From Patescibacteria group bacterium (GTDB taxonomy: Bacteria > Patescibacteriota > Patescibacteriia > JAGVFQ01), in the NCBI GenBank assembly GCA_020057505.1, contig JAGVFQ010000032.1, positions 1 to 57,441 of the forward strand: a stretch of 57,441 nt of DNA, read 5' to 3'. Made by a program: the position numbers and the translations under genes. This document shows, piece after piece, positions 4,502 through 18,689 of this stretch (its first letter is position 1; each line of letters starts with the position of its first letter). Under the pieces are notes generated by a model, which did not search any database, was not told the origin of the DNA, and was given only the letters and a program-made list of their open reading frames with translations.

Positions 4502-7051
4502 ATGTTTGAGGAATTCTTCCAATTTGTAAATACCAATATAGTACAAGGCAATGAAGCAATCATGGCCTTGGTTGGAATAATTGTTCTGTCGGCAGCAATC
4601 TTGATCTGCCCTTTTTTTATTATCCGGAAATTTTTGCACCGAATCGGCCGGATTCCCACGGCTTTTGAATTTGTCGTTTTACTCGTCACTCTGCCCAAAG
4701 AATCGCAGGATGACCGGCAAAAAGAAGCGCCGCGAAGCCAGCAGGCGCTCGCCGAAACCATCGGCATAGCGGAAACATTATTTTCTAGCATCGGCGGACT
4801 CAAGGCCCAGCGCGGACTCAAAGCCTTTCTTTTCGGCCGCACCGACCACTTATCATTTGAAATAGTGGCTCACGAAGGATTAATTTCTTTCTATGTCGCG
4901 GTGCCGCGCTACATGATTCAGTTTATCGAGCAGCAGATTCAAGCGCAGTATCACACGGCCGTGATTGAAGAAATTGACGATTATAATATTTTTACGCCCG
5001 AAGCCAAGATCGTTGGGACATATTTAACGTTCAAAGAGAAAAGCGCTTTCCCTATCAGAACCTATAAAAAGACGGAATCAGATCCTCTGAATGCCCTCAC
5101 CAATACTTTAAGTAAGCTCGGTGAAGAGGATGGAGCGGCGATACAGTTTGTCGTCCGTTCAGCCAAAAAAGAATGGCGTCGCGAGGGGATCAGAATCGCG
5201 AGAGCGATGCAGCAGGGGAAAAAATTATCCGAAGTTAAACATAGCGGATTTTTCAGCGGCTGGATTAATCTTTTCAAATCTTCAAAATTGGCATCAAAGC
5301 CGGGCGAGGCGCCGAAGGAACTATACAAATTGACTCCGCTTGAGGAAGAAATGGTGAAAAACCTGGAAGAAAAAGCCAATAAGCTCGGGCTTGATGTTAA
5401 TATCAGATTACTCTCCGTATCCAAGGACGAAACGCGCGCCAAAATGTATCTCGATAATATGGTCAGTTCCTTCAGCCAGTATAATATTCCGCAGTATGGC
5501 AATATTTTTAGAAAATTCCAGCATGGTATTTTCCGGGGCAAGGACAGAATTATCCATGATTTTATTTTTCGAAATTTTACGGACAAAGCCAAGATTGTTT
5601 TGAATACCGAGGAGATGGCGAGCGTCTATCATTTCCCGCTCGCGACGACGGAAACGCCGAATATCCGCTGGCTACTCGCAAAAAAAGCGCCAGCGCCCGT
5701 GAATGCGCCCAAGGAAGGCGTGCTTTTGGGCTACAATGACTATCGCGGTTTAAGAACGGATATTAAGATTAAAAGAGAAGATCGATTCCGCCATGTCTAT
5801 ATTATCGGTAAATCCGGCGTCGGCAAATCCGTGCTTTTGTCCAATATGATTATCCAAGACATTGTCGCGGGCGACGGTGTGGCCGTAGTGGATCCGCATG
5901 GCGATCTCGTGGAAGATGTCTTGCCTCATATCCCCAAAGACCGGATCGACGATGTTATTTATTTTTGTCCCGCGGATACTGATCGGCCAATGGGTTTGAA
6001 CATGCTTGAGTATAAAACCGATGAACAGAAGGATTTTGCCGTGCAGGAAATGATTGCCATTTTTTACAAATTATTCGGCCAGGAAATGATTGGTCCGATG
6101 TTTGAGCATTATATGAGAAATGCCATGCTTGCCTTAATGGAAGACAAGGAATCCGGCGCGACGATTATTGAAATTCCGAGAATGTTCACGGACAAGGAAT
6201 TCCGAAAAAATAAATTAACCAAAGTAAAAAATCCTGTGGTAAAAAGTTTTTGGGAGCAGGAATATGAACAATCACAGCGTGGTTCCCAGGCCGCGGATAT
6301 GCTTTCTTATGTTATTTCCAAAATCGGCAGATTCTTGACGAATGACATGATGAGAAATATTATCGGGCAGGTGAAGTCCGGCTTTGATTTCCGCGAGGTG
6401 ATGGATAACCGGAAAATTTTATTGATTAATTTGTCCAAGGGCACTACTGGCGAAGTAAATAGCAATCTGCTCGGCATGATTCTCGTGACCAAACTTCAAG
6501 TCGCGGCGATGACGAGAGCAAAACAGGAAAAGAGCGAGCGCAAAGATTTTTTCCTCTATATTGATGAGTTCCAAAATTTTATTACGGATAGTATCGCTAC
6601 GATTCTCTCCGAAGCGAGAAAATATCGTTTTGGTTTGATTATCGCGCACCAATATATCGGGCAACTGGTACAAGGTCAGGACACGAAGACAAGGGACGCG
6701 GTTTTTGGCAATGTCGGCACAATGATCTCTTTTCGTATCGGCGTGGAAGACGCGGAGACTGTGGCTAAAGAATTTGCTCCGGTGTTTAACGAATACGACG
6801 TGATCAATGTTCCAATGTACACCGCTTATTGCAAACTTTTGGTTGATAACACGGCGACCAATGCTTTTAATATGGCTACTTATCCACCGAGGAAGGGCGA
6901 CAGAAAGATGGCCGAGGCGATTAAAGAGCTTTCTCGCTTGAAATACGGGCGGAACAAAGTGATTGTGGAAGCGGAAATTATGGAGCGGAGCAATCTTGGT
7001 AATCTTTCCGGCGGCGCGGGCGGCGGCAGCCCGGATCACGGGATTCTATAA
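4502..7051 (+). CDS. Membrane-anchored FtsK/HerA-superfamily P-loop ATPase, TraD/VirD4 (type IV coupling protein)-like
   Basis: N-terminal TM helices. Walker A is GKSGVGKS and Walker B-like is FFLYIDEFQNF. The ATG at 4502 is preferred because the listed TTG at 4487 lies inside the AT-rich repeat. Confidence 0.7.
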   Translation: MFEEFFQFVNTNIVQGNEAIMALVGIIVLSAAILICPFFIIRKFLHRIGRIPTAFEFVVLLVTLPKESQDDRQKEAPRSQQALAETIGIAETLFSSIGGLKAQRGLKAFLFGRTDHLSFEIVAHEGLISFYVAVPRYMIQFIEQQIQAQYHTAVIEEIDDYNIFTPEAKIVGTYLTFKEKSAFPIRTYKKTESDPLNALTNTLSKLGEEDGAAIQFVVRSAKKEWRREGIRIARAMQQGKKLSEVKHSGFFSGWINLFKSSKLASKPGEAPKELYKLTPLEEEMVKNLEEKANKLGLDVNIRLLSVSKDETRAKMYLDNMVSSFSQYNIPQYGNIFRKFQHGIFRGKDRIIHDFIFRNFTDKAKIVLNTEEMASVYHFPLATTETPNIRWLLAKKAPAPVNAPKEGVLLGYNDYRGLRTDIKIKREDRFRHVYIIGKSGVGKSVLLSNMIIQDIVAGDGVAVVDPHGDLVEDVLPHIPKDRIDDVIYFCPADTDRPMGLNMLEYKTDEQKDFAVQEMIAIFYKLFGQEMIGPMFEHYMRNAMLALMEDKESGATIIEIPRMFTDKEFRKNKLTKVKNPVVKSFWEQEYEQSQRGSQAADMLSYVISKIGRFLTNDMMRNIIGQVKSGFDFREVMDNRKILLINLSKGTTGEVNSNLLGMILVTKLQVAAMTRAKQEKSERKDFFLYIDEFQNFITDSIATILSEARKYRFGLIIAHQYIGQLVQGQDTKTRDAVFGNVGTMISFRIGVEDAETVAKEFAPVFNEYDVINVPMYTAYCKLLVDNTATNAFNMATYPPRKGDRKMAEAIKELSRLKYGRNKVIVEAEIMERSNLGNLSGGAGGGSPDHGIL

Positions 7052-7087
7052 GATTAAAGTTGAAAGATTAAAGATTTAGAATTACAA

Positions 7088-7130
7088 CCCCCTTCCCCCC
7101 CTTTGTTAATGGGGAATTAAAAGATTAAAG
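7088..7130 (+). repeat. GC-rich hairpin repeat, family 1
   Basis: cccccttcccccctttgttaatggggaattaaaagattaaag, about 37 nt after the stop at 7051. Confidence 0.75.
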
Positions 7131-8795: not shown

Positions 8796-10403
8796 ATGTC
8801 CCAAACTTTATACCAAAAATATCGGCCGCAGAGCTTCAAAGATGTAGTCAGTCAAAACCACATCAAGATTACTTTGCAGAATGAGATTGAGACAGGCAAA
8901 ACCGCCCATGCTTATCTTTTTTATGGTCCGCGCGGCATTGGCAAGACAACGATGGCGCGGCTTCTCGCCAAGGCGCTTAATTGTGAAAATAGAAAAGAAA
9001 AAGAAAGCGAGCCTTGCAATAAATGTTCTTCTTGTCTCGAGATTACTGCCGGCCGATCCATTGATGTAATTGAGATGGACGCCGCGTCGCAGACCGGCGT
9101 GGACAATGTGCGGGAAAATATCATCCAAAACGCGCGTTTCAGTCCGAGCAAGAGCAAATATAAAGTTTTTATCATCGACGAAGTCCATATGCTTTCTCCC
9201 GCCGCTTTCAACGCCCTCTTGAAAATTATTGAAGAGCCGCCGAAACACGTGATTTTTATTCTCGCGACAACGGAAATCCACAAAGTGCCGGCGACGATTA
9301 TTTCCCGCTGCCAGCGTTTTGATTACAAACGAGCGGGACTTGAAGATATTGTGACGAGCCTCAGCCTGATCATGCAGCAAGAAGGCATCAAAATCGCCAA
9401 AGAAGTCTTGGAAAATATCGCCCGCCATAGCGAGGGTTCGATCCGCGACGCCCAAAGCCTATTAGGACAAGTGCTCGCGCTCGGAGAAAAAGATATTACC
9501 GCGGCTCAAGCTGAATTGATCATCCCGAAATCCAATTTTGATCTCGTGGCGGATTTTGTTGAATATTTGGTTCACAAGAATACCGAAGGCGGCATCAGCC
9601 TGATTAATAAAATGATTGAAGAGGGGGTTGACCTCAACCAATTCAGCGTTGACCTGATAGAATTTTTGCGCAAGATGCTCCTCTACAAAATCAGCGGCGG
9701 TTTGAAAGGTTTTTCTTTTGAATTGGATGAAAATATTGAAAAGAAAATTTCGCAATTGCAAAAAGAATGGGAAGTAAGAAAAATCGCGTCCGTGATCGAG
9801 ATTTTTATTTTAAAAAAGCAAGAGTTGAAATATTCTTCAATTATACAATTGCCTTTGGAATTGGCCGTGGTGGAAATCTGCGCTGATCAGACTATCAATC
9901 CGACGGGTTTCACGGCTGGAGATGAGAAAAAAACTTGGCAGGAATTGAAATCAAAAGTTCTAGGCAAAATTGCCGGCCCAGCCAAGCCAGCGTCGGAAGC
10001 TGAGAAGAAAGAAGAGAGCGTTGCCAAAGACGCGTCCGCGTCAGCCGAAGCCAGTCTGAAGCAAGTGCAGGATAATTGGCTGAAAGTGTTGGAAAAAGTT
10101 GATGAGGCTAATCATTCTTTGATTTTTATTTTGACCATGGCCAAGCCCTTGTCAGTTAACAAAAATGTGCTAGAATTGGGATTCAAGCACAAGTTTCACC
10201 AAGAAATGATTGAAATAAGGAAAAACAAATTTACTTTGGAAAACGCGCTCAAGGAAATTATTGGCATAAAGATTATTGTCGCGGCCAAAGTAGTGCCTGA
10301 TCTGGTTATTGAATCCAGCGCCAAAAAGCCAGAAGAGAGCGCGGGAGTTAATAGTTCGCTGACGGATATTTTGGATGCGTTTGGGGGAAGGGTGGTGGAA
10401 TAA
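8796..10403 (+). CDS. dnaX: DNA polymerase III subunit gamma/tau
   Basis: AAA+ Walker A GPRGIGKTT, zinc module CNKCSSC, and SRCQRF sensor region. Confidence 0.9.
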   Translation: MSQTLYQKYRPQSFKDVVSQNHIKITLQNEIETGKTAHAYLFYGPRGIGKTTMARLLAKALNCENRKEKESEPCNKCSSCLEITAGRSIDVIEMDAASQTGVDNVRENIIQNARFSPSKSKYKVFIIDEVHMLSPAAFNALLKIIEEPPKHVIFILATTEIHKVPATIISRCQRFDYKRAGLEDIVTSLSLIMQQEGIKIAKEVLENIARHSEGSIRDAQSLLGQVLALGEKDITAAQAELIIPKSNFDLVADFVEYLVHKNTEGGISLINKMIEEGVDLNQFSVDLIEFLRKMLLYKISGGLKGFSFELDENIEKKISQLQKEWEVRKIASVIEIFILKKQELKYSSIIQLPLELAVVEICADQTINPTGFTAGDEKKTWQELKSKVLGKIAGPAKPASEAEKKEESVAKDASASAEASLKQVQDNWLKVLEKVDEANHSLIFILTMAKPLSVNKNVLELGFKHKFHQEMIEIRKNKFTLENALKEIIGIKIIVAAKVVPDLVIESSAKKPEESAGVNSSLTDILDAFGGRVVE

Positions 10404-10473: not shown

Positions 10474-10544
10474 TGCGGGATCGTCTAATGGTAGGACAGC
10501 AGACTCTGAATCTGCTTATCGTGGTTCGACCCCACGTCCCGCAG
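10474..10544 (+). tRNA. tRNA-Gln (anticodon CUG), no encoded CCA
   Basis: Hand-folded cloverleaf. Acceptor stem is TGCGGGA/TCCCGCA with the U1-A72 pair typical of bacterial tRNA-Gln. Anticodon stem is GCAGA/TCTGC with loop CTCTGAA. T arm is CGTGG-TTCGACC-CCACG. Variable loop is 4 nt. Confidence 0.9.
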
Positions 10545-10682: not shown

Positions 10683-11537
10683 ATGAGCAAACAATCAAAA
10701 ACCAAAGCGATAGCAATTTTTGAAGGCAAGCAAATCCGCCGTCATTGGGACGAGGAGAAAGAACTGTGGTATTTTTCAGTTGTTGATGTTGTTGGGATTT
10801 TGACAGACAGCATTGATCCAAGAAAGTATTGGAATAAATTAGCTCAAAGGCTTCGTGAGGAAGGCAGTGAGGTGGTGACAAAATGTCACCAACTGAAATT
10901 TATGGCTAAGGACGGCAAATACTATGCTACCGACGCGGCTGATACTGAAACAACGTTCCGCATTATCCAATCCATCCCTTCGCCCAACGCCGAACCCTTT
11001 AAGCTCTGGTTGGCGCGCGTTGGTTATGAAAGAATTGAAGAAACTGAGGATCCGGAAAAAGCGATTCAAAGAGCGCTCACGACTTATCTCAAAAAGGGAT
11101 ATTCAAAAGAATGGGTGGATTTGCGCTTGAAAACCATTGAAATCAGAAAGGACTTAACCAACGAATGGAACGAACGGGGAGTAAAAACAAGCGATGAGTT
11201 TGCGATCCTGACTGATGATATTTCTTTTGCTTGGGCCGGTCTGAAAACCAAAGATTATAAAAAGCACAAAGATTTAAAAAAGGAAAATTTGCGCGATAAT
11301 ATGACGAATCTGGAATTGGTTTTGAATATGCTGGCCGAGACCGCGACAACTGAAATTTCAAAAAAACAAAAACCAGAGACTTTTTCGGAAAATCGGCGAG
11401 TGGCGCAAGAAGGCGGTACCATCGCCGGTAACGCCCGCAAGCAGATTGAAGCCAAGACAGGCAAAAAAGTCATTACAAGTAAAAACGCCAAAAATTTGTC
11501 CGCCGGAAAAACATATCAGGGAATTGAAAAGCGATAA
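10683..11537 (+). CDS. Bro-N domain protein (BRO / antirepressor-like)
   Basis: The N-terminus IAIFEGKQIRRHWDEEKELWYFSVVDVVGIL matches the Bro-N pattern (F..ir...d...wf...Dv..iL). Confidence 0.65.
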   Translation: MSKQSKTKAIAIFEGKQIRRHWDEEKELWYFSVVDVVGILTDSIDPRKYWNKLAQRLREEGSEVVTKCHQLKFMAKDGKYYATDAADTETTFRIIQSIPSPNAEPFKLWLARVGYERIEETEDPEKAIQRALTTYLKKGYSKEWVDLRLKTIEIRKDLTNEWNERGVKTSDEFAILTDDISFAWAGLKTKDYKKHKDLKKENLRDNMTNLELVLNMLAETATTEISKKQKPETFSENRRVAQEGGTIAGNARKQIEAKTGKKVITSKNAKNLSAGKTYQGIEKR

Positions 11538-11585
11538 GAAGAAAATATTGGAATAATCTAGGTTAGTCAGGTCATTCGTCTTGAT

Positions 11586-11670
11586 GTCCCGCAGTTTGTA
11601 AGAAAAACGCTGATTTTGAGGCGTTTTTTTGTTTGACTTGGCGCGAGTTAGGGCGTAAAATTAGAGTAAA
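11586..11670 (+). repeat. Direct repeat copy 2 (tRNA-Gln 3-prime 9 nt + terminator + promoter module)
   Basis: See copy 1. The promoter hexamers TTGACT (11633-11638) and TAAAAT (11656-11661) are retained. Confidence 0.85.
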
Positions 11671-11705
11671 TAAATAAAAAAAATTTATAGTTTTAAAGAA
11701 AAAAT

Positions 11706-11833
11706 ATGGCGCAAGAAATTGTTCCAATTTCATTTAATAAAGATTTTCTGAGCATAAAAAAATCGATGAAAATGCCGTTGAATATTGGCGGGTCCGCGAA
11801 TTAATACCTCTTTTGCAAATTGGCAAAAAGTAG
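11706..11833 (+). pseudogene. Truncated, frameshifted dinD-like fragment
   Basis: MAQEIVPISFNKDFLSIKK, then after a +1 shift inside an A7 run, IDENAVEYWRVRELIPLLQIGKK*. This aligns by eye with the N-terminus of the intact DinD-like gene at 25413 (KNFEDCSHEKNGVEFWYARELQELLGY). Confidence 0.5.
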
Positions 11834-11885
11834 CTGTTTTTTACGATTATAAACTTTAAAATGTATATTTTGAAGCATTAAATGA

Positions 11886-11935
11886 GTAGATTGTTATATT
11901 TTTGGGTAGATTTGGACGGTGCTTGTGTAGATTTG
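11886..11935 (+). promoter_or_regulatory. Three phased direct repeats GTAGATT(T)G (11886, 11906, 11927), a candidate operator array upstream of the HTH-GHKL gene
   Basis: Spacing is 20 and 21 nt, about two helical turns. The third copy overlaps a possible TTGTGT-N17-TAATAT promoter ending only about 8 nt before the ATG at 11959. Confidence 0.45.
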
Positions 11936-11958
11936 AATAGTATGATAATATATCATAT

Positions 11959-12678
11959 ATGGAAGAAAAATTACTTACAATCGGTCAAGCTGCTCTATAT
12001 CTAGGGGTTTCCTTAAATACACTTCGTCGTTGGGACGAAAGCGGTAAATTAGTCGCGATCAAAAAAGAGGGCGGAACCCATCGTTATTACCGCGAAAAGG
12101 ATTTGGAAATTTTTGCGAGCGATCTCTTGAAGTTTGCTTCGGAATGGATAGCAGATGGCGTTGAATTTCCGGGCACATTTTATTGTCCAACCAGTTCGAT
12201 TTTCAATGCTAGGCTGACAAAAATGGAATATGCGCTGATGCAAAAACCCGGGTTTGAAAAATTGTATTCTTTAATTGTTTTAGTTACTGGAGAAATCGGC
12301 GATAATTCATTTGCCCACAACTTGGGAAAGTGGCCGGATACGGCAGGTATTTTTTTTGGTTATGATCTGGAAAAACGAATCATTGTACTGGCTGATCGAG
12401 GGTTGGGAATTCTCGAAACATTACGCCGGGTTCGGCCGGAACTTCCGAACCACGTGGCGGCGGTGGAAGTTGCATTCACGGAATTTATCTCTGGCAGGGC
12501 GCCTGAGAAGCGCGGCAACGGTCTTAAACTCGTCCGTGAGGTTGTTACCGACCAGCCAATTGATTTGTTTTATACCAGCGGCGATGCGGAGGTGCGCATG
12601 AAAGGCCCTGATAAAGTATTTCGTGTTACGCGCGGCGAGCGTATCGTGCGAGGGTGTTTGGCTAAAATAGAATTCTAA
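11959..12678 (+). CDS. MerR/excisionase-type HTH fused to an RsbW/SpoIIAB-like GHKL (histidine-kinase-like) ATPase domain
   Basis: N-terminal HTH is LTIGQAALYLGVSLNTLRRWDESGKL. The C-terminal half has an N-box ExxxNxxxH (EIGDNSFAH), a G1 box DxGxG (DRGLG) and a G2 box GxGL (GNGLKLV). Confidence 0.75.
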   Translation: MEEKLLTIGQAALYLGVSLNTLRRWDESGKLVAIKKEGGTHRYYREKDLEIFASDLLKFASEWIADGVEFPGTFYCPTSSIFNARLTKMEYALMQKPGFEKLYSLIVLVTGEIGDNSFAHNLGKWPDTAGIFFGYDLEKRIIVLADRGLGILETLRRVRPELPNHVAAVEVAFTEFISGRAPEKRGNGLKLVREVVTDQPIDLFYTSGDAEVRMKGPDKVFRVTRGERIVRGCLAKIEF

Positions 12679-12701
12679 TAAATTTTAAGAAGTAAAAATA
12701 T

Positions 12702-12992
12702 ATGAAATTACAACTGGAAAAGTTTGGCAAAACATTAATATCGCGGGAATTGGGCAGTGAGGCTTTCAAGGCGTTTCAGCCGACTTTGCGCGAGTTTTCC
12801 AAAGACGAAGAGCTGGAAATAGATTTTTCCGGCGTATTAACATTATCACCGTCATGGGCTGATGAATTTTTAAGTCCTTTGCTCAATCAATTGGGCGATA
12901 AGCTGATACTCTTGCCGAGCGATAATCTTTCGGTGCAGGCGACACTTAGAATTCTAGAAGAAGCTAATAAACGGAGTTTTAAGATGAAGTAA
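12702..12992 (+). CDS. STAS-like domain protein (DUF4325 type)
   Basis: ISRELGSEAF...LEIDFSGVLTLSPSWADEFLSPLL matches the DUF4325 pattern (DF.gV...s.SfaDEf). It lies 23 nt downstream of the GHKL gene. Confidence 0.7.
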   Translation: MKLQLEKFGKTLISRELGSEAFKAFQPTLREFSKDEELEIDFSGVLTLSPSWADEFLSPLLNQLGDKLILLPSDNLSVQATLRILEEANKRSFKMK

Positions 12993-12996
12993 TTTT

Positions 12997-13098
12997 ATGG
13001 ACTATTCTCAAGAGTATCTAAATACTATTATCAAAAAATATAATACCGGCCAAGCGAAAGAACACGCGCATCGGCCGGCTTGGGAATCGTTAAAGTAA
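12997..13098 (+). CDS. 33-codon ORF between the STAS-like gene and the R-M gene (possible gene remnant or upstream ORF)
   Basis: MDYSQEYLNTIIKKYNTGQAKEHAHRPAWESLK*. It starts 5 nt after the STAS stop and ends 8 nt before the R-M ATG, in a different frame from the R-M gene. Confidence 0.25.
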   Translation: MDYSQEYLNTIIKKYNTGQAKEHAHRPAWESLK

Positions 13099-13106
13099 AT
13101 AATTTT

Positions 13107-15806
13107 ATGCAAGAAGAAGCTAAAGAAAAAATTAAAAACCTTATCGCGAAATACGAAGCGGAAAAAGCCGCGGGGAAGATTGCCAGATATAGCGAAGAAG
13201 AAACCAAAAGAGGTTTTATTGAGCCACTGTTTCAGGCGTTGGGTTGGGATTTTTCAAGTAAAAAAGAAATAACCCTAGAAGAGCAGATTTCCGGCGATCG
13301 CGTGGATTATGGTTTTTATTTGAATGGCCGGATAAAATTTTATTTGGAAGCCAAAAAAATATCAGTTGATTTGTATCGCGAAGATTATGCCAAGCAAGCC
13401 ATCCGTTATTCTTGGAACAAAGGCGTTACTTGGGCTGTGCTCTCCGACTTTGAAGGTTTGATTGTCTTCAACGCTCTATCGCCGGAAAAATCTTTGGCCG
13501 GGAAAAAGTATTTATCTTTTACTTATGAAGAATATCTAACTCGCTTTGACGAGCTGTGGCGTCTGTCGAAAGAAGCCTTTAGCGCTGATCTTTTGGATCA
13601 GGAAGCTGAAAAAGTGGGCAAGAAATTGCAAAAGGTGTCTGTCACTGAAACCTTATCAAATGATTTGAATGAATGCCGAGAAATTTTGACTAAAGCTTTT
13701 TTACAATGGAATGAAAAAGTTGATCCGCATCTTATAGACGAAGGCGTGCAAAAGCTGCTCAATCGACTGATTTTTATCCGTTGCGCCGAAGACCGGAAAA
13801 TTGAACCGCCGACGCTCCTACCCTTGATTCATGAATGGCAATCAAGCGGCAAGGCCGGATCAGTCAGTCCTTATCAGGCCATGATAAAAAAATTTAGAGA
13901 ATTAGACGCCATCTATAATTCCAACTTGTTCAGCGAACATCCGTTTGAAAAATGGGAAGAATTCAGCGGGGCGACGGAAAAGGTGATTGAGATTTTACAC
14001 GGAAAAAAGAATTATTTTGAATATGATTTTTCAGCTATACCCGCCGATGTACTCGGTAATGTCTATGAGAATTATCTTGGCCATCAATTAAAAAAATCCA
14101 AAAAGGCGGAAGATCTGTCGGGCAAGAATCTCAAAAAACGCAAAGAGCAGGGGATATACTATACGCCCAAGTTTATTGTTGATTATATCGTGCAAAATGC
14201 TCTTGGTCCGGTATTGGATAAATGTGAAAGTATAAATGATCTACAGAAAATTAAAATTCTAGATCCGGCTTGCGGCTCGGGCTCATTTTTGGTGGCGGCG
14301 ATGAATTTCTTGATAAAGAAGTATGAAGAATTCGGAGCCAAGCCCGACGGTCTCTTAAAAATTCAGATTTTGCAAAATAATATTTATGGCGTGGATTTGG
14401 ATGAGCAAGCCGTGGAGCTCGCGCGCTTGAATTTGCTTTTGAATACTTTTGACAGCCAAACCAAACTGCCTAATCTGGGCGGGAATATTAAAAATGGCAA
14501 TTCGTTAATTTCCGGCAGTGATGAAGAGCTGGAAAAATATTTTGGGAAAAATTGGCGCGAGAAAAAACCGTTTAATTGGGAAGAGGAATTTCCCGAAGTT
14601 TTCCGACAAGGTGGGTTTGATGTAGTAATCGGCAATCCGCCGTATATACAATCAAGAAATATAAATGATGAGGAAAGGCATTTTTATTGGGATAAATATC
14701 AAACTGATACTAATCATTCCGATATTTATTCTTTTTTCATTGAAAAATCAATTGATCTTTTAAAAAATCAAGGAGCTTTAAGTTTTATTACTCCAAATAC
14801 ATGGTTGCAAACTCCAAGTTTTAAGTCCACAAGAAAAAAGATTTTTGATGAAAGTAAGATACTAAAAATTTTAACTTTTGACACAAATGCAAAAATATTT
14901 GGCGACGCTCAAGTTTCGAATATCGTTTTTGTTATACAAAAAGAAACAAACAAAAAGGTTAGTATGAGTAATTCCATAGAGATAGAAAAAAGTGAAATTG
15001 ATTTTAAAATAAATGCATTAAATAAAATTGAACAAAAAGATATTGATTCAGAGAAAGGATTTAATATTTTTATCAGTCAGGAACCCAAAGATATTATAGA
15101 TAAAATTCTTTCAAATTCTATTGTTTTAGATTCTGTCGGAGAGATTATAGGCGGATTAAGAACGGGTGATGATAAAAAGTTTTTAAAAAATAAATTTGAA
15201 AATCAAAATGATAAAAAGTTGCTTAGAGGAAGAAATGTGAGTCGTTACCATCTAAAATGGAATGGAGAATATGTTTGGTATAAGCCAGAATTGATGAAAG
15301 TAAAACAAGCAGCGGCACCAAAAGAATCAAAAATTTTTGAGACTAAAGAAAAATTATTAGTAAGAATGATAACAGGGGGAGAACTTATCGCCACTTTTGA
15401 TAACGAAGGATTTTATTTCTTACAAGATAATCTTATTTTGCCAAAAGAAAAATATAGCATTAAATATTTATTGGCGATTTTAAATTCAAAATTGTCCGGG
15501 TTTGTAGTTAAAAATTCTGTATCTAATATTGCTATAACACAATCGTTATTAAAAAAATTTCCAATTTATAAAATTGATTTTTCAAAACCAAAAGAAAAAG
15601 AAAAGCATGACGATCTAGTAAAATTGGCCGATAAAATGCTTAAATTAAATAAGGAGCTTCGCAGGCTACCAGAAAATTCCGATAAGTGGAATTCAATAAA
15701 ATCAGAAATAGAAAAGACGAATAAATTGATTGATCAAAAAGTTTATGAATTGTATAATTTAAACGAAAACGAAATTAAAATAGTTGAAAGCTATGACAAA
15801 ATCTAA
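13107..15806 (+). CDS. Type IIG restriction-modification fusion enzyme (PD-(D/E)xK nuclease + gamma-class N6-adenine methyltransferase + specificity region), Eco57I-like architecture
   Basis: N-terminal HsdR_N-like nuclease motif (RVDYGFYLNGRIKFYLEAKK). SAM motif I is ILDPACGSGSFL and catalytic motif IV is GNPPYI. The long K/N/I-rich C-terminal region is a presumed TRD. The ATG at 13107 is preferred over the TTG at 13080. Confidence 0.85.
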   Translation: MQEEAKEKIKNLIAKYEAEKAAGKIARYSEEETKRGFIEPLFQALGWDFSSKKEITLEEQISGDRVDYGFYLNGRIKFYLEAKKISVDLYREDYAKQAIRYSWNKGVTWAVLSDFEGLIVFNALSPEKSLAGKKYLSFTYEEYLTRFDELWRLSKEAFSADLLDQEAEKVGKKLQKVSVTETLSNDLNECREILTKAFLQWNEKVDPHLIDEGVQKLLNRLIFIRCAEDRKIEPPTLLPLIHEWQSSGKAGSVSPYQAMIKKFRELDAIYNSNLFSEHPFEKWEEFSGATEKVIEILHGKKNYFEYDFSAIPADVLGNVYENYLGHQLKKSKKAEDLSGKNLKKRKEQGIYYTPKFIVDYIVQNALGPVLDKCESINDLQKIKILDPACGSGSFLVAAMNFLIKKYEEFGAKPDGLLKIQILQNNIYGVDLDEQAVELARLNLLLNTFDSQTKLPNLGGNIKNGNSLISGSDEELEKYFGKNWREKKPFNWEEEFPEVFRQGGFDVVIGNPPYIQSRNINDEERHFYWDKYQTDTNHSDIYSFFIEKSIDLLKNQGALSFITPNTWLQTPSFKSTRKKIFDESKILKILTFDTNAKIFGDAQVSNIVFVIQKETNKKVSMSNSIEIEKSEIDFKINALNKIEQKDIDSEKGFNIFISQEPKDIIDKILSNSIVLDSVGEIIGGLRTGDDKKFLKNKFENQNDKKLLRGRNVSRYHLKWNGEYVWYKPELMKVKQAAAPKESKIFETKEKLLVRMITGGELIATFDNEGFYFLQDNLILPKEKYSIKYLLAILNSKLSGFVVKNSVSNIAITQSLLKKFPIYKIDFSKPKEKEKHDDLVKLADKMLKLNKELRRLPENSDKWNSIKSEIEKTNKLIDQKVYELYNLNENEIKIVESYDKI

Positions 15807-16560
15807 AATTACTAAAAATATACAACTTTGCAATCAAGGGGAAGGTTTTTTCGAATCCATCTTATCTCAAAATGTAATATTACATCAGGTAAAAGGCGGA
15901 AATGATGTTGGGATTGATTATTTTTGCGAATTGATTAATGCAAAAAATGAATCCTCAAATATTTTATTTGTAATTCAATTAAAAACAACGAGGAAAGATA
16001 ATGTTGTCCTGCAAAAGGTTGAAAATAATTCTCGTCTAAATAAACTAGATCAATATGAGATAAAAAGAAAAAACAAAAAGGGAGGGGCAAGTGGAAAGTA
16101 TGACAACAAGAGCTTAATTAAAGATGAAACTTTAGAATATTGGAAGGGCTTTGAGACGCCCGTGTATTTATTTGTAGCTGTTATCGGAAACAAAAATCAA
16201 TTGTTCTATAAAAGATACACTCCAATTCTGCATAGCACACAAAAGAGAAATAATGAAAAATTTTACTTGGTTAATAATAAAAATTTATTTCTAGCATTTA
16301 TTGAAAATAATCAAGGAGGATTTTGCAGGGATTTATTTATTGATTATGTAAGGTGTAATTATAAAAAAGGATCGTTACTATATAAATCGCCGAAAGATTT
16401 TGGACTAAAACAATTTTCGGAAGACGATTTTTATAAAGATTTGTTTAGGAATAAAATATATAAAGACGCATTTATAAAAACGAGAGATAAATTGAATTAT
16501 TTTTGTAGCGGTAAAAGAAAAATGGCGGCAGATGGATTGGGGAAGGGGGAGGAGGGATAA
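15793..16560 (+). CDS. DUF4365-like (restriction-endonuclease-fold) protein
   Basis: NQGEGFFESIL...GGNDVGIDYFCEL...LFVIQLKT fits the DUF4365 pattern (G.Ge...D.GIDy..E...vQ.K). The ATG at 15793 overlaps the R-M stop codon (15804-15806) by 14 nt. Confidence 0.6.
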   Translation: MTKSKITKNIQLCNQGEGFFESILSQNVILHQVKGGNDVGIDYFCELINAKNESSNILFVIQLKTTRKDNVVLQKVENNSRLNKLDQYEIKRKNKKGGASGKYDNKSLIKDETLEYWKGFETPVYLFVAVIGNKNQLFYKRYTPILHSTQKRNNEKFYLVNNKNLFLAFIENNQGGFCRDLFIDYVRCNYKKGSLLYKSPKDFGLKQFSEDDFYKDLFRNKIYKDAFIKTRDKLNYFCSGKRKMAADGLGKGEEG

Positions 16561-17033: not shown

Positions 17034-17702
17034 ATGGATTTGCAAGAATTTAAAAGTTACAATATTAAACAAAAATTAGGAATTGACGATGAAAAATTCG
17101 GAAAGATTTTTGTTTTTATTGATTTTGCCAATGTGGATAAATGGTTTGCCGAAGACACTAGAGATTGGGATAATAATGTTTTAGACAATAATAATAAACT
17201 ATCCATTGATTTAGAGAGGCTGGTTAATTTTATAAAATGTTTTTCTGGTGATTTTAGATTTTATTACGGACATGATCCGCAAAATAAAAATTCATTAAAA
17301 TTTCTTGGGAAAACAAAATATGTTTTTGGCGAAAAAAATGTTTTTACCAAACCAATCCAACAAATCAGGCATTATTTAAAAGAAAGAGAAAAATTAATAA
17401 ATACAAGGTGTACACAACATGACAACGAAGGCGATTTTATTTATTTACCCAAATGTAACTTTGATGTAGAAATTTGCGTTGACGCTATCAGATTGATAAA
17501 TAAATATGATACTTTTTGTCTTTTTTCAAGTGATGCGGATTTTGTTAGTTTAATAACATTTCTAAAAAATAACCGCAAAAAAGTAATTTTGATTAAAGGA
17601 GGGCATGTGCAGTATTCTTTAAAAGCAAACAGTGATAAGGTTATAAACGCTCAGGATATAAAGGCATATATAGCCCATATAAAGCAAAAATCTAGCCCTT
17701 AA
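17034..17702 (+). CDS. NYN-domain (LabA/DUF88-like, PIN-like fold) putative ribonuclease
   Basis: FVFIDFANV...DVEICVDAIRL...FCLFSSDADFVSLITFLK matches the conserved acidic residues of NYN/LabA domains. Confidence 0.7.
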   Translation: MDLQEFKSYNIKQKLGIDDEKFGKIFVFIDFANVDKWFAEDTRDWDNNVLDNNNKLSIDLERLVNFIKCFSGDFRFYYGHDPQNKNSLKFLGKTKYVFGEKNVFTKPIQQIRHYLKEREKLINTRCTQHDNEGDFIYLPKCNFDVEICVDAIRLINKYDTFCLFSSDADFVSLITFLKNNRKKVILIKGGHVQYSLKANSDKVINAQDIKAYIAHIKQKSSP

Positions 17703-17759
17703 GGCTAGATCTTGCGGATAGTATTCCCGCATCCGCGGGCAGGGCAATCTTGCGATTAC
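17684..17759 (-). ncRNA. Candidate small RNA B (about 75 nt), convergent with and overlapping the NYN gene 3-prime end
   Basis: The minus-strand promoter is TTGACA (17789-17794), a 17-nt spacer, and TATATT (17766-17771). The terminator ATCTAGCC-TTAAG-GGCTAGAT plus TTTTTG spans the NYN stop codon (17700-17702). There is an internal CCCGC-GGAU-GCGGG hairpin, and CGCAAGAU occurs twice. Confidence 0.35.
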
Positions 17760-17814
17760 ATATTGAATATATCAAAACTTATCCACAATGTCAAATATAC
17801 AATCAAACATTCTA

Positions 17815-18689
17815 TGAAAATCCTCTCCCGCCTAGCCATACTTCTCTCTTTTAGCTTAATTTTGACTGGTTGTGAAGCAGTAAATCTTCCGGCCAATAAT
17901 AATTTAGCAGCGCCGGTGGTGGAAGAGGCGAATAATGTTAATCAAGTTGTTTTAAACCAAAACGTAAATACCAATATTGCCCAGCCGGCGGTTGTTCAGA
18001 ATACCAAACCAGTGGCTGTCCCGGCGAAAAAAATATCTCCTGAGAAAGAATATTATCTTGTCATCAAAGTCGTTGATGGCGATACTCTGGATCTAAATAT
18101 CAATGGCGCTACGGAAAGAATACGGCTCATCGGCATTGATACGCCGGAAGTGGTGGATCCGAGAAAACCGGTGCAGTGTTTTGGCCTCGAGGCCTCCAAT
18201 CAGGCCAAGGCAGTCCTCACTGGCCAGTCCGTGGCTTTGGAAAAAGATCCTTCGCAAGGGGAGCGGGACAAATACGGCCGATTGCTCGGCTATATTTTTT
18301 TGAGAGATGGTACAAATTTTAACAAGCAGATGATTCGGGAGGGCTATGCCTATGAATATACTTATAATTTGCCATACAAATATCAAACGGAATTCAAAGC
18401 GGCGGAAAATTACGCCCGAATCAATAAACTTGGCCTTTGGGCGGATGATAGTTGCATCGACGTCGCCACGCCCGTTTCGACAAATACTAATACAAATTCT
18501 AACACCAATACTGCCGCCGCGACCGGGTGTGTGATTAAGGGTAATATCACCACGGAAAAAATTTATCATCTGCCCGGATGCGGCAGTTATTATAAAACAA
18601 CTATAGATGAATCAAAAGGGGAGCGCTGGTTTTGCACTGAAACAGAAGCCGTGGCTGCCGGTTGGCGCAAAGCGAAAAATTGTCCGTAA
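17815..18689 (+). CDS. Secreted thermonuclease (SNase-fold) lipoprotein with a C-terminal Cys-containing KGNI...IYHLPG...WFC...EA.AAGWR domain
   Basis: Lipobox is LTGC. SNase motifs are VVDGDTLDL, RLIGIDTPE and YGRLLGYIF. The ATG at 17815 is preferred over the TTG at 17712. Confidence 0.85.

Follow-up and report, generated by a model that had tools for sequence, protein, structure and literature searches.

A two-gene cassette of an HTH-GHKL fusion protein and a STAS-like partner in the Patescibacteria, a putative autoregulated switch

The window analyzed here is a stretch of 57,441 base pairs (contig JAGVFQ010000032.1 of assembly GCA_020057505.1, positions 1 to 57,441 of the forward strand) from a Patescibacteria group bacterium. 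It carries a cassette of two genes, A and B, followed by a type IIG restriction-modification (R-M) gene; the coordinates are collected in Table 1. Gene A encodes a helix-turn-helix (HTH) domain fused to a predicted ATP-binding domain of the GHKL type, and gene B encodes a small STAS-like protein of the DUF4325 family. The cassette recurs in many lineages of the candidate phyla radiation (CPR, or Patescibacteria) behind an operator of three direct repeats, and it probably works as a self-contained switch that controls its own transcription. A preliminary description of this DNA had reported an HTH motif (LTIGQAALYLGVSLNTLRRWDESGKL) and the boxes EIGDNSFAH, DRGLG and GNGLKLV in A, a 96-residue B that starts 23 nucleotides downstream and bears a DUF4325/STAS-like signature (IDFSGVLTLSPSWADEF), three phased GTAGATT(T)G repeats 20-21 nucleotides apart, and a TTGTGT-N17-TAATAT promoter. 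All of these are present at the positions it gave, and the promoter has in addition the TG of an extended -10 element.

The cassette and its operator

The repeats were compared across 80 related genome loci, which come from a scan of one genome per species and have A and B at 68-92% identity, and box arrays were also searched for in 1.2 Mb of fetched sequence. In the window alone, two exact matches to GTAGATTKG are not significant (19 of 100 shuffles reach the same count). Between loci, conservation upstream of gene A is confined to the last ~75 nucleotides before the ATG, and nearly all 80 loci have three direct repeats there, 20-21 nucleotides apart and in constant register with the ATG. The 10-nucleotide segment containing box 3 begins 33-34 nucleotides ahead of the ATG in 62 of 76 loci; the box overlaps a -35-like TTG(T/C)(G/A)T, TGnTAnnAT comes next, and the ATG follows after ~7-9 nucleotides. 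Correctly spaced pairs of boxes occur 155 times in the 1.2 Mb, all of them at cassette promoters (0.7 in shuffled sequence), and no box array lies ahead of any downstream gene in the same sequence.

Two main versions of the box exist, (G/T)GTAGATT and GCATAG(A/T)TT, and within a locus all three copies change together. The version follows residue 20 of protein A: asparagine goes with G-TAG boxes in 42 of 44 loci and aspartate with CA-TAG boxes in 31 of 31 (Fisher p 5e-19, a statistic only partly corrected for phylogeny), and glutamine or methionine goes with TA-TAG boxes. On a tree of the GHKL domain only, the two characters, residue 20 and box type, change at least 13 and at least 15 times and are still coupled in 73 of 75 taxa. 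Because the two stay coupled through repeated changes, the comparison offers strong indirect evidence that the HTH of A reads the boxes. The preliminary description had placed the last phased repeat over a plausible promoter of a nearly leaderless mRNA; an operator role of the repeats at this promoter is made much stronger by the retention of the array and by the covariation of helix and box.

Within the window, 17 nucleotides separate the -35-like hexamer from TAATAT (11946-11951), which is preceded by TG at 11943-11944. The promoter at 11923-11951 is not among the sites listed by a simple consensus promoter scan. Because the ATG of gene A stands so close behind the -10, the sequence implies an mRNA that is leaderless or nearly so; the divergent loci L087, L088 and L090 have instead a longer leader with a GAGG motif. 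The terminator-like hairpin 3' of the upstream gene shields the cassette from transcription coming from upstream. When the upstream region was examined as a possible RNA element, Rfam found only the tRNA-Gln gene at 10474-10544. A possible degenerate fourth box (GTATATT, 11863-11869) is in phase with the conserved three, and a possible fourth box also lies ~21 nucleotides 5' of box 1 in several loci, e.g., L034, L046, L054 and L071. Locus L087 holds two cassettes (5952-7090 and 10933-12088) at a distance of ~5 kb, and each of them has a CATAGTTT box array to itself.

Table 1. Coordinates of the cassette, its promoter and adjoining features in the window.
Feature	Position	Strand	Basis or remark
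Terminator-like hairpin and T-run	11601-11630	+	3' of the upstream Bro-N/PDC-S13 gene; second scan gave the same result
Operator box 1, GTAGATT (distal)	11886-11892	+	Sequence; position kept in nearly all of 80 loci
Operator box 2, GTAGATT	11906-11912	+	20 nt after box 1; position kept across loci
-35-like hexamer TTGTGT	11923-11928	+	Kept as (C/A)TTG(T/C)(G/A)T in loci; TTGCAT where boxes are of the CATAG type
Operator box 3, GTAGATT	11927-11933	+	21 nt after box 2; overlaps 3' end of the -35 hexamer and the spacer
Extended -10, TGaTAATAT	11943-11951	+	Consensus TGnTAnnAT, kept in loci; ATG of gene A 7 nt further on
Gene A, HTH and GHKL kinase-like fusion, 239 aa	11959-12678	+	Open reading frame, Pfam, alignment, AlphaFold model, Foldseek
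A, HTH (aa 5-53), MerR/excisionase-type, BldC-like	11971-12117	+	Pfam, PDB sequence match, Foldseek, residue-20 covariation
A, N20 codon	12016-12018	+	Start of recognition helix S-L-N-T-L-R-R-W
A, predicted GHKL (Bergerat-fold) domain (aa ~75-239)	12181-12675	+	Invariant residues, model, Foldseek, hhalign to VapK
A, N box E112-N121	12292-12321	+	EIGDNSFAH (E112, N116, H120)
A, G1 box D146-G150	12394-12408	+	DRGLG (D146, G148, G150)
A, G2 box R185-L189 (RGNGL)	12511-12525	+	GNGLKLV (G186, G188)
Gene B, STAS-like DUF4325, 96 aa	12702-12992	+	Starts 23 nt after A
B, S49	12846-12848	+	Position varies (S/T/A)
B, candidate phospho-acceptor S51	12852-12854	+	Invariance; alignment to CapS S54
33-codon open reading frame	12997-13098	+	Sequence
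Type IIG R-M fusion gene	13107-15806	+	Reading frame opens with TTG at 13080; likely start ATG at 13107

Domains, distribution and constraint

Residues 5-52 of protein A match the Pfam families HTH_17 (6.9e-11), MerR_1 and MerR. The best PDB sequence matches of this HTH are the BldC chains 6ama and 6amk, and PDB sequence searches with A or with the family profile match the HTH only. The excisionase model TIGR01764 scores the HTH at E 1.6e-6 and 28.3 bits, just below its cut-off of 28.8. A search with the C-terminal 180 residues against 1.84 billion cluster representatives yielded 295 relatives. In an alignment of 57 diverse relatives, E112, N116, H120, N121, G130, D146, G148, G150, R185, G186, G188 and L189 are invariant, and these include the GHKL N, G1 and G2 boxes. 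Sub-threshold matches to HATPase_c_2 occur in 19 of the 57 and to HATPase_c in 8; VapK and CapK, two characterized GHKL kinases discussed below, likewise fall below the Pfam HATPase_c threshold. AlphaFold (AF2) gave a model of A from the alignment with a predicted local distance difference test score (pLDDT) of 92.7; from the single sequence the score was 35 and the model was not usable. The top Foldseek matches of the model in the PDB are all GHKL ATPases (TRAP1/Hsp90, GyrB/ParE, topoisomerase II; probability 0.96-0.99), and the remaining listed matches are BldC and a MerR-type protein, both on the HTH (BldC at a root-mean-square deviation of 1.5 A and 42% identity). Because of the invariant box residues, the high-scoring model and these structural matches, we accept a GHKL fold for A, as a divergent predicted member.

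Protein B matches DUF4325 at E 1e-5 and 25.6 bits (cut-off 23) and consists of the STAS-like domain alone. In the 80 genome loci it follows A directly wherever sequence continues downstream, and among 65 metagenome loci of greater divergence it does so in 64. Ser51 is invariant in 78 close and 64 more distant partners; in the wider set P50, S51, W52, D54, E55 and F56 do not vary and position 49 is serine, threonine or alanine. Because Ser51 is invariant while position 49 varies, the alignment points to Ser51 as the functional serine of B and the candidate phospho-acceptor. The conserved serine has a proline beside it, like VapS S48-P49, and it stands 7 residues after the 'SG' of the beta3 strand, which is also the spacing of S58 in SpoIIAA.

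The reading given in the preliminary description, an HTH-GHKL fusion with a STAS-like DUF4325 partner, is thus borne out by Pfam, the invariant boxes, the model and Foldseek. Of the profile matches it had expected, HTH_17/MerR in A and DUF4325 in B were obtained and HATPase_c in A was not. Its analogy with partner switching between a GHKL kinase and a STAS protein holds as well. The GHKL core of the relatives carries at least four N-terminal arrangements, among them a winged HTH (wHTH; P0121, P0139, P0153, P0157), no HTH at all (P0133 and similar proteins of ~190 residues) and a STAS domain (P0251 and P0262, the latter from candidate division WWE3); the sensor or DNA-binding module has evidently undergone repeated swaps.

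The best 120 of 4360 database matches of A are 87-93% identical to it and the best 120 of 1314 matches of B 88-96%, and among them all those with a named source belong to CPR lineages. Lineages with loci include Giovannoni-, Taylor-, Nomura-, Uhr-, Azam-, Doudna-, Peregrini-, Kerfeld-, Andersen- and Berkelbacteria and others. Seven loci (L026, L045, L063, L069, L080, L084, L086) are filed as metagenome-assembled genomes of Gammaproteobacteria, Elusimicrobiaceae, Rikenellaceae, Roseivirgaceae or Bdellovibrionales; the cassette is otherwise restricted to the CPR, and errors of binning or labelling are the probable explanation for these contigs.

A and B are 74-92% identical between genomes whose other common proteins are 23-68% identical. 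Codons of the cassette differ at 40-49% of third positions and at 3-12% of first and second positions, and its divergence at four-fold sites averages 0.60, compared with 0.68 for other genes of the same genome pairs and 0.74 at saturation. With third-codon and four-fold sites near saturation, recent horizontal spread is rejected as the source of the high identity, and the sequences indicate that the divergence is old and that purifying selection has been very strong. An origin in phages or plasmids is rejected as well, since tblastn finds no relative in phage or plasmid records. A collection of 2.9 million viral contigs holds a single relative, at 50% identity, and the sole PHROG match to the GHKL region of A is weak and falls on a family of unknown function. 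The two-box pattern has more than 120 matches in the viral contigs, which we take as chance for 14 specified bases in a very large collection.

Neighbouring genes

The 487 open reading frames (ORFs) that flank the cassette in ~75 loci form 405 clusters, of which the largest covers nine loci, and this clustering reveals no conserved third gene. R-M genes are among the three downstream genes in only ~10% of these loci (raw fraction). The R-M components among 150 downstream proteins are ResIII (5), N6_N4_Mtase (3), Eco57I (3), DpnI (2) and EcoEI_R_C (2); glycosyltransferases, P-type ATPases, VTT, NUDIX and similar proteins occur beside them. Tightly downstream genes are mixed and mostly of the housekeeping kind (Mur ligase, MnmA, Ham1, glycosyltransferases, SWIB, dCMP deaminase, HsdR, DNA methylase). 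The upstream flanks hold GIY-YIG, IS200, AbiEii, Fic, Methylase_S and Bro-N genes alongside those for tRNA synthetase, RNA polymerase and elongation factors. The neighbour is on the same strand downstream in 75% of loci and upstream in 74%, so there is no directional bias, and only 9 of 77 loci have a terminator-like hairpin after B. The lists of the 25 commonest Pfam families of each flank include neither PIN nor integrase, and the flank survey shows no sigma-factor gene consistently near the cassette.

The type IIG gene of the window matches Eco57I, N6_Mtase, TaqI_C and HSDR_N in Pfam and REase_MTase_IIG in PADLOC (4e-123). No terminator-like or promoter-like site was found between B and this gene, so read-through from the cassette into it is plausible from the sequence. 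A homologue lies downstream of the cassette in only two other loci, L015 and L060. L015 has a cassette 92% identical to that of the window and an R-M gene 49% identical, and there, despite the homologous gene, the spacer from B to the R-M gene shows no conservation. The 33-codon ORF in this spacer has no homologue in any fetched locus; for this reason, and because of the unconserved spacer, it is unlikely to be a gene or to belong to the module. The type IIG gene itself is probably an incidental local neighbour or passenger rather than the conserved target of the module. The preliminary description had the cassette wired in front of the R-M gene or made it part of a defence system. That view is left unsupported by the missing third gene and the rarity of downstream R-M genes, and further by the mostly housekeeping tight neighbours and by a cassette that evolves far more slowly than defence genes usually do. 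PADLOC, which it had proposed as a check, recognizes the type IIG gene; for A and B neither PADLOC nor NCBIfam gives a system-level match, only generic HTH matches. The PADLOC match of A to mad1 covers the HTH only (aa 1-57). Mad1 is an accessory generic regulator of MADS, whose mandatory genes are mad6-8 (MADS paper), and no other mad component is near the cassette apart from generic methyltransferase similarity; membership in MADS was rejected.

The surroundings of the cassette have several further features. A tRNA-Gln (ctg) gene (10474-10544) sits between dnaX (8796-10403) and a variable stretch that holds a Bro-N gene, the cassette, the type IIG gene, and DUF4365, NYN and nuclease-like lipoprotein genes, and that looks like an island beside the tRNA gene. 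The Bro-N/DinD-like protein (10683-11537) has matches to PDC-S13 (E 1.6e-130), a candidate family of PADLOC, and to phrog_15286 (E 2.9e-119), and homologues lie within a few genes of the cassette in L026, L027, L050, L052 and L090. The DUF4365 gene has a weak PADLOC match to the N-terminal region of the Aga REase and shares 23 nucleotides with the 3' end of the type IIG gene, for which reason the two are probably one operon; it is followed by an NYN-domain gene and then a putative thermonuclease-like lipoprotein gene (coordinates given for this stretch are 15784-16560 and 17034-18689).

Loci L002 and L003 have an identical A and the same downstream genes and unrelated upstream genes (dnaG-rpoD in L003; unknown, possibly mobile genes in L002). 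The break lies ~270 nucleotides upstream of gene A and adjoins a tRNA-like 3' fragment on which ARAGORN makes no call. Small accessory genes that recur in the flanks of L012-L091 are GIY-YIG (9 loci), Fic/DOC (~7), a 95-residue ArsR-like wHTH protein (4), LexA-like Peptidase_S24 (3), AbiEii (3) and IS200 (3). tRNA genes lie at most 1 kb from the cassette in ~11 of 60 loci; they are of different kinds, and a specific tRNA integration site is unlikely.

A putative autoregulated switch and its alternatives

Kinase-STAS pairs of comparable design have been characterized. CapK (HTH-STAS-GHKL) phosphorylates Ser54 of CapS (STAS-wHTH), the repressor of an adjacent immune operon; CapK is switched on by single-stranded DNA (ssDNA) bound between its STAS and GHKL domains, and VapK (STAS-GHKL) phosphorylates VapS (STAS) at S48, whereby the toxin VapC is released (Chambers et al., EMBO J 2026, PMC13373217). 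We took the CapK, CapS, VapK and VapS sequences from the source files of that study. In hhalign, the kinase family matches VapK over the whole GHKL domain (probability 88.7%, E 2.6e-6), CapK less well (61%, E 8e-5) and SpoIIAB (1TIL sequence) hardly at all (2.7%, E 0.017). VapS matches DUF4325 at E 2.7e-17. The B family matches CapS (68%, E 4.8e-5) with S51 of B on S54 of CapS; searched against the whole PDB, the B profile places VapS first (E 0.15) and CapS third, neither significantly. Pairwise BLASTP of A and B against CapK and CapS gives no match.

Like CapK-CapS, the A-B pair has a kinase-like protein with an N-terminal HTH, the gene order kinase to STAS protein, an autoregulatory operator over the promoter (as predicted for A-B) and variable downstream genes. 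The differences concern architecture and operator, and the likeness in sequence is marginal. CapK has 368 residues and A 239; in A the HTH (aa 5-53) and the GHKL domain (from ~aa 75) lie only ~20 residues apart, a gap that cannot hold a STAS domain, and none appears in the AlphaFold model. CapS carries a DNA-binding wHTH (found as HTH_24) and is the repressor, whereas B lacks any such domain, which must leave the recognition of DNA to A. CapS sites are TTAA palindromes before capS and the cargo, in contrast to three direct repeats before the kinase gene only. Finally, 348 of 443 capKS loci precede immune operons (PMC13373217), whereas ~10% of the 75 A-B loci precede R-M genes. Judged by sequence and profile comparison, the pair is a distant relative of VapK/VapS and CapK/CapS that fails their defining architectures. 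The preliminary description had recognized no named system: named relatives do exist in CapK/CapS and VapK/VapS/VapC, and the pair nevertheless falls outside them.

The closest counterpart of the HTH, in both sequence and structure, is that of the Streptomyces MerR-like developmental regulator BldC. BldC reportedly binds direct repeats as head-to-tail multimers, a mode that fits the three direct repeats of A and not a palindrome. It differs from A in being a stand-alone protein of ~68 residues with no effector domain, and its repeats are about one helical turn apart, compared with two for A.

On this basis we consider it reasonably probable that A and B form a self-contained autoregulated two-gene switch, ancient and strongly conserved in the CPR/Patescibacteria and distantly related to VapK/VapS and CapK/CapS. 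A would bind the three repeats, two helical turns apart, through its BldC-like HTH and assemble on them head to tail. Because the proximal repeat overlaps the -35 and spacer of A's own promoter, occupancy of box 3 should repress the A-B transcript and any downstream read-through, which may reach the type IIG gene. The GHKL domain, with all its ATP- and Mg-binding residues kept, would act as a serine kinase on Ser51 of B. Unphosphorylated B would bind A and be released once phosphorylated, thereby gating the assembly of A on the operator; promoter occupancy would differ between B-bound and B-free A, and transcription would come to depend on ATP or on some activating signal. The comparisons establish the domain folds, the constancy of the pair and of its operator, the coupling of helix and box, the lack of a conserved third gene and the purifying selection; repression rather than activation, the kinase activity, Ser51 as acceptor and the effect of B on DNA binding are inferred.

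Several observations weigh against this reading. Beyond the HTH, A has no Pfam match, HATPase_c included; the Foldseek matches to GHKL proteins are weak (best E ~4e-4, TM-score ~0.3) and include no anti-sigma kinase among the 50 listed. The homology of B to CapS and VapS is marginal. No PP2C phosphatase gene turned up in the neighbourhood of the cassette, in a survey that included no dedicated check for one. Deletion of the HTH of CapK gave no phenotype (PMC13373217), and a kinase of this kind may thus carry an HTH that has no regulatory role. The family is known here from sequences and predicted structure alone, and the covariation statistic has only part of the phylogeny taken out, with a neighbor-joining tree of near-identical sequences that is noisy. 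A purely autoregulatory loop, moreover, does not account for the extreme conservation of A and B. Because a self-contained loop is here conserved beyond housekeeping proteins, the constraint suggests a conserved cellular partner not yet seen, or a distant regulon.

One alternative is that the cassette is a stand-alone stress or phage sensor of the VapKSC type, in which B inhibits an effector encoded elsewhere and is freed when A phosphorylates it, or that A and B form an addiction module. The likeness to VapKSC is real: in both, a small DUF4325 gene comes immediately after a GHKL kinase gene, of the characterized proteins tested VapK scores highest with the profile of the kinase family, and VapK and A have in common an 'NSF-x-H' N box and an 'RG-x-GL' G2 box. 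The frequent position of the cassette among mobile or accessory genes and near tRNA genes would also suit such a module, as would the two copies in L087. However, where VapK has an N-terminal STAS domain that forms a predicted ssDNA groove, A has its HTH; B ends ~20 residues earlier than VapS (96 versus 116 aa) and lacks the C-terminal helix that blocks VapC; PIN is not among the frequent flanking families of A-B, and the flanking clusters show no other conserved effector gene; and the three-repeat operator has no VapKSC counterpart. Defence and toxin-antitoxin genes are, furthermore, rarely 74-92% identical across classes, and phage, plasmid and viral-contig collections contain practically no member of the family. 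We regard a stand-alone sensor as unlikely.

It is similarly doubtful that the cassette is a dedicated controller of the adjacent R-M gene or of neighbouring defence effectors, in the manner of a C protein or of CapK/CapS. The arrangement in the window invites the idea, with the type IIG gene on B's strand and 114 nucleotides behind it, nothing terminator-like or promoter-like between the two, and a homologous gene behind the cassette in L015 and L060. CapK/CapS precede diverse immune operons, with 88 of 443 loci beside R-M systems (PMC13373217), and A-B flanks often hold R-M, Fic, AbiEii, GIY-YIG and Bro-N genes. The C proteins of R-M systems, too, are autoregulated HTH proteins with leaderless-mRNA promoters ahead of R-M genes. 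Those, however, are Xre-type HTH dimers with palindromic C-boxes and consistent R-M linkage, unlike A, which has a MerR/excisionase-type HTH followed by 185 residues, direct repeats and rare R-M linkage. The survey of loci speaks against a controller as well: no downstream gene is conserved among the flanking clusters, R-M domains are few and tight neighbours mostly housekeeping, no downstream gene has a box array of its own, strand bias is lacking, and in L015 the spacer and the R-M gene have diverged far more than the cassette.

About equally improbable is a DNA-tethered anti-sigma partner switch, in which the GHKL domain of A sequesters a sigma factor or a part of RNA polymerase, B is the anti-anti-sigma factor, and the HTH only positions the complex at one promoter. 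Like SpoIIAB-SpoIIAA and RsbW-RsbV, A-B combines a GHKL serine kinase-type protein with a STAS antagonist-like one; the N, G1 and G2 boxes are the same, PE-x-R-x-G-x-G precedes G2 as in anti-sigma kinases, and the weak HATPase_c_2 matches of the homologues agree with this. A conserved cellular partner would account for the extreme constraint, and in one lineage the cassette stands directly 3' of dnaG-rpoD. The similarity to SpoIIAB is nevertheless undetectable at the family level, the kinase-like domain of A is fused to a DNA-binding domain, B is a DUF4325 protein rather than one of the classical STAS family, sigma-factor genes are not consistently near, and sigma binding by A is purely hypothetical.

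Xis-type proteins bind direct repeats head to tail, and with the TIGR01764 score, several PHROG excisionase families that match the HTH of A and the occasional nearby tRNA gene one might see in A an excisionase-like recombination directionality factor with the repeats as arm-type sites of a mobile element, but this is very improbable given the absence of integrases from the frequent flanking families, the fixed register of the repeats with the -35, -10 and ATG, the variable tRNA neighbours, and a fully conserved ATP-binding domain and an obligatory STAS partner that are foreign to excisionases.

The autoregulated switch that we favor admits a more specific form, which we put forward as a tentative possibility. 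In the CPR an ancient module would have made the GHKL serine kinase itself the sequence-specific repressor, with phosphorylation of Ser51 in a minimal STAS partner switching the promoter; the cassette would then supply any gene behind it, in the window the type IIG enzyme, with a portable promoter gated by ATP or stress, and its constraint would come from a conserved partner not yet seen.

For annotation, a restriction enzyme next door is insufficient ground for calling the cassette a defence component. The covariation of residue 20 with one operator base provides a ready specificity swap, in which N20D is expected to move the preference of A from GTAGATT to CATAGATT, and which is feasible in E. 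coli or in vitro. The pair would extend the kinase-STAS theme of CapK and VapK to a third architecture, with DNA binding on the kinase, and modules of this sort would occur beyond immune loci as well. Genomes of the CPR/Patescibacteria are tiny, the regulators known from them are few, and experimental genetics hardly exists for these bacteria. A switch whose sequence is kept better than that of most of their housekeeping proteins probably has a central place in their physiology.

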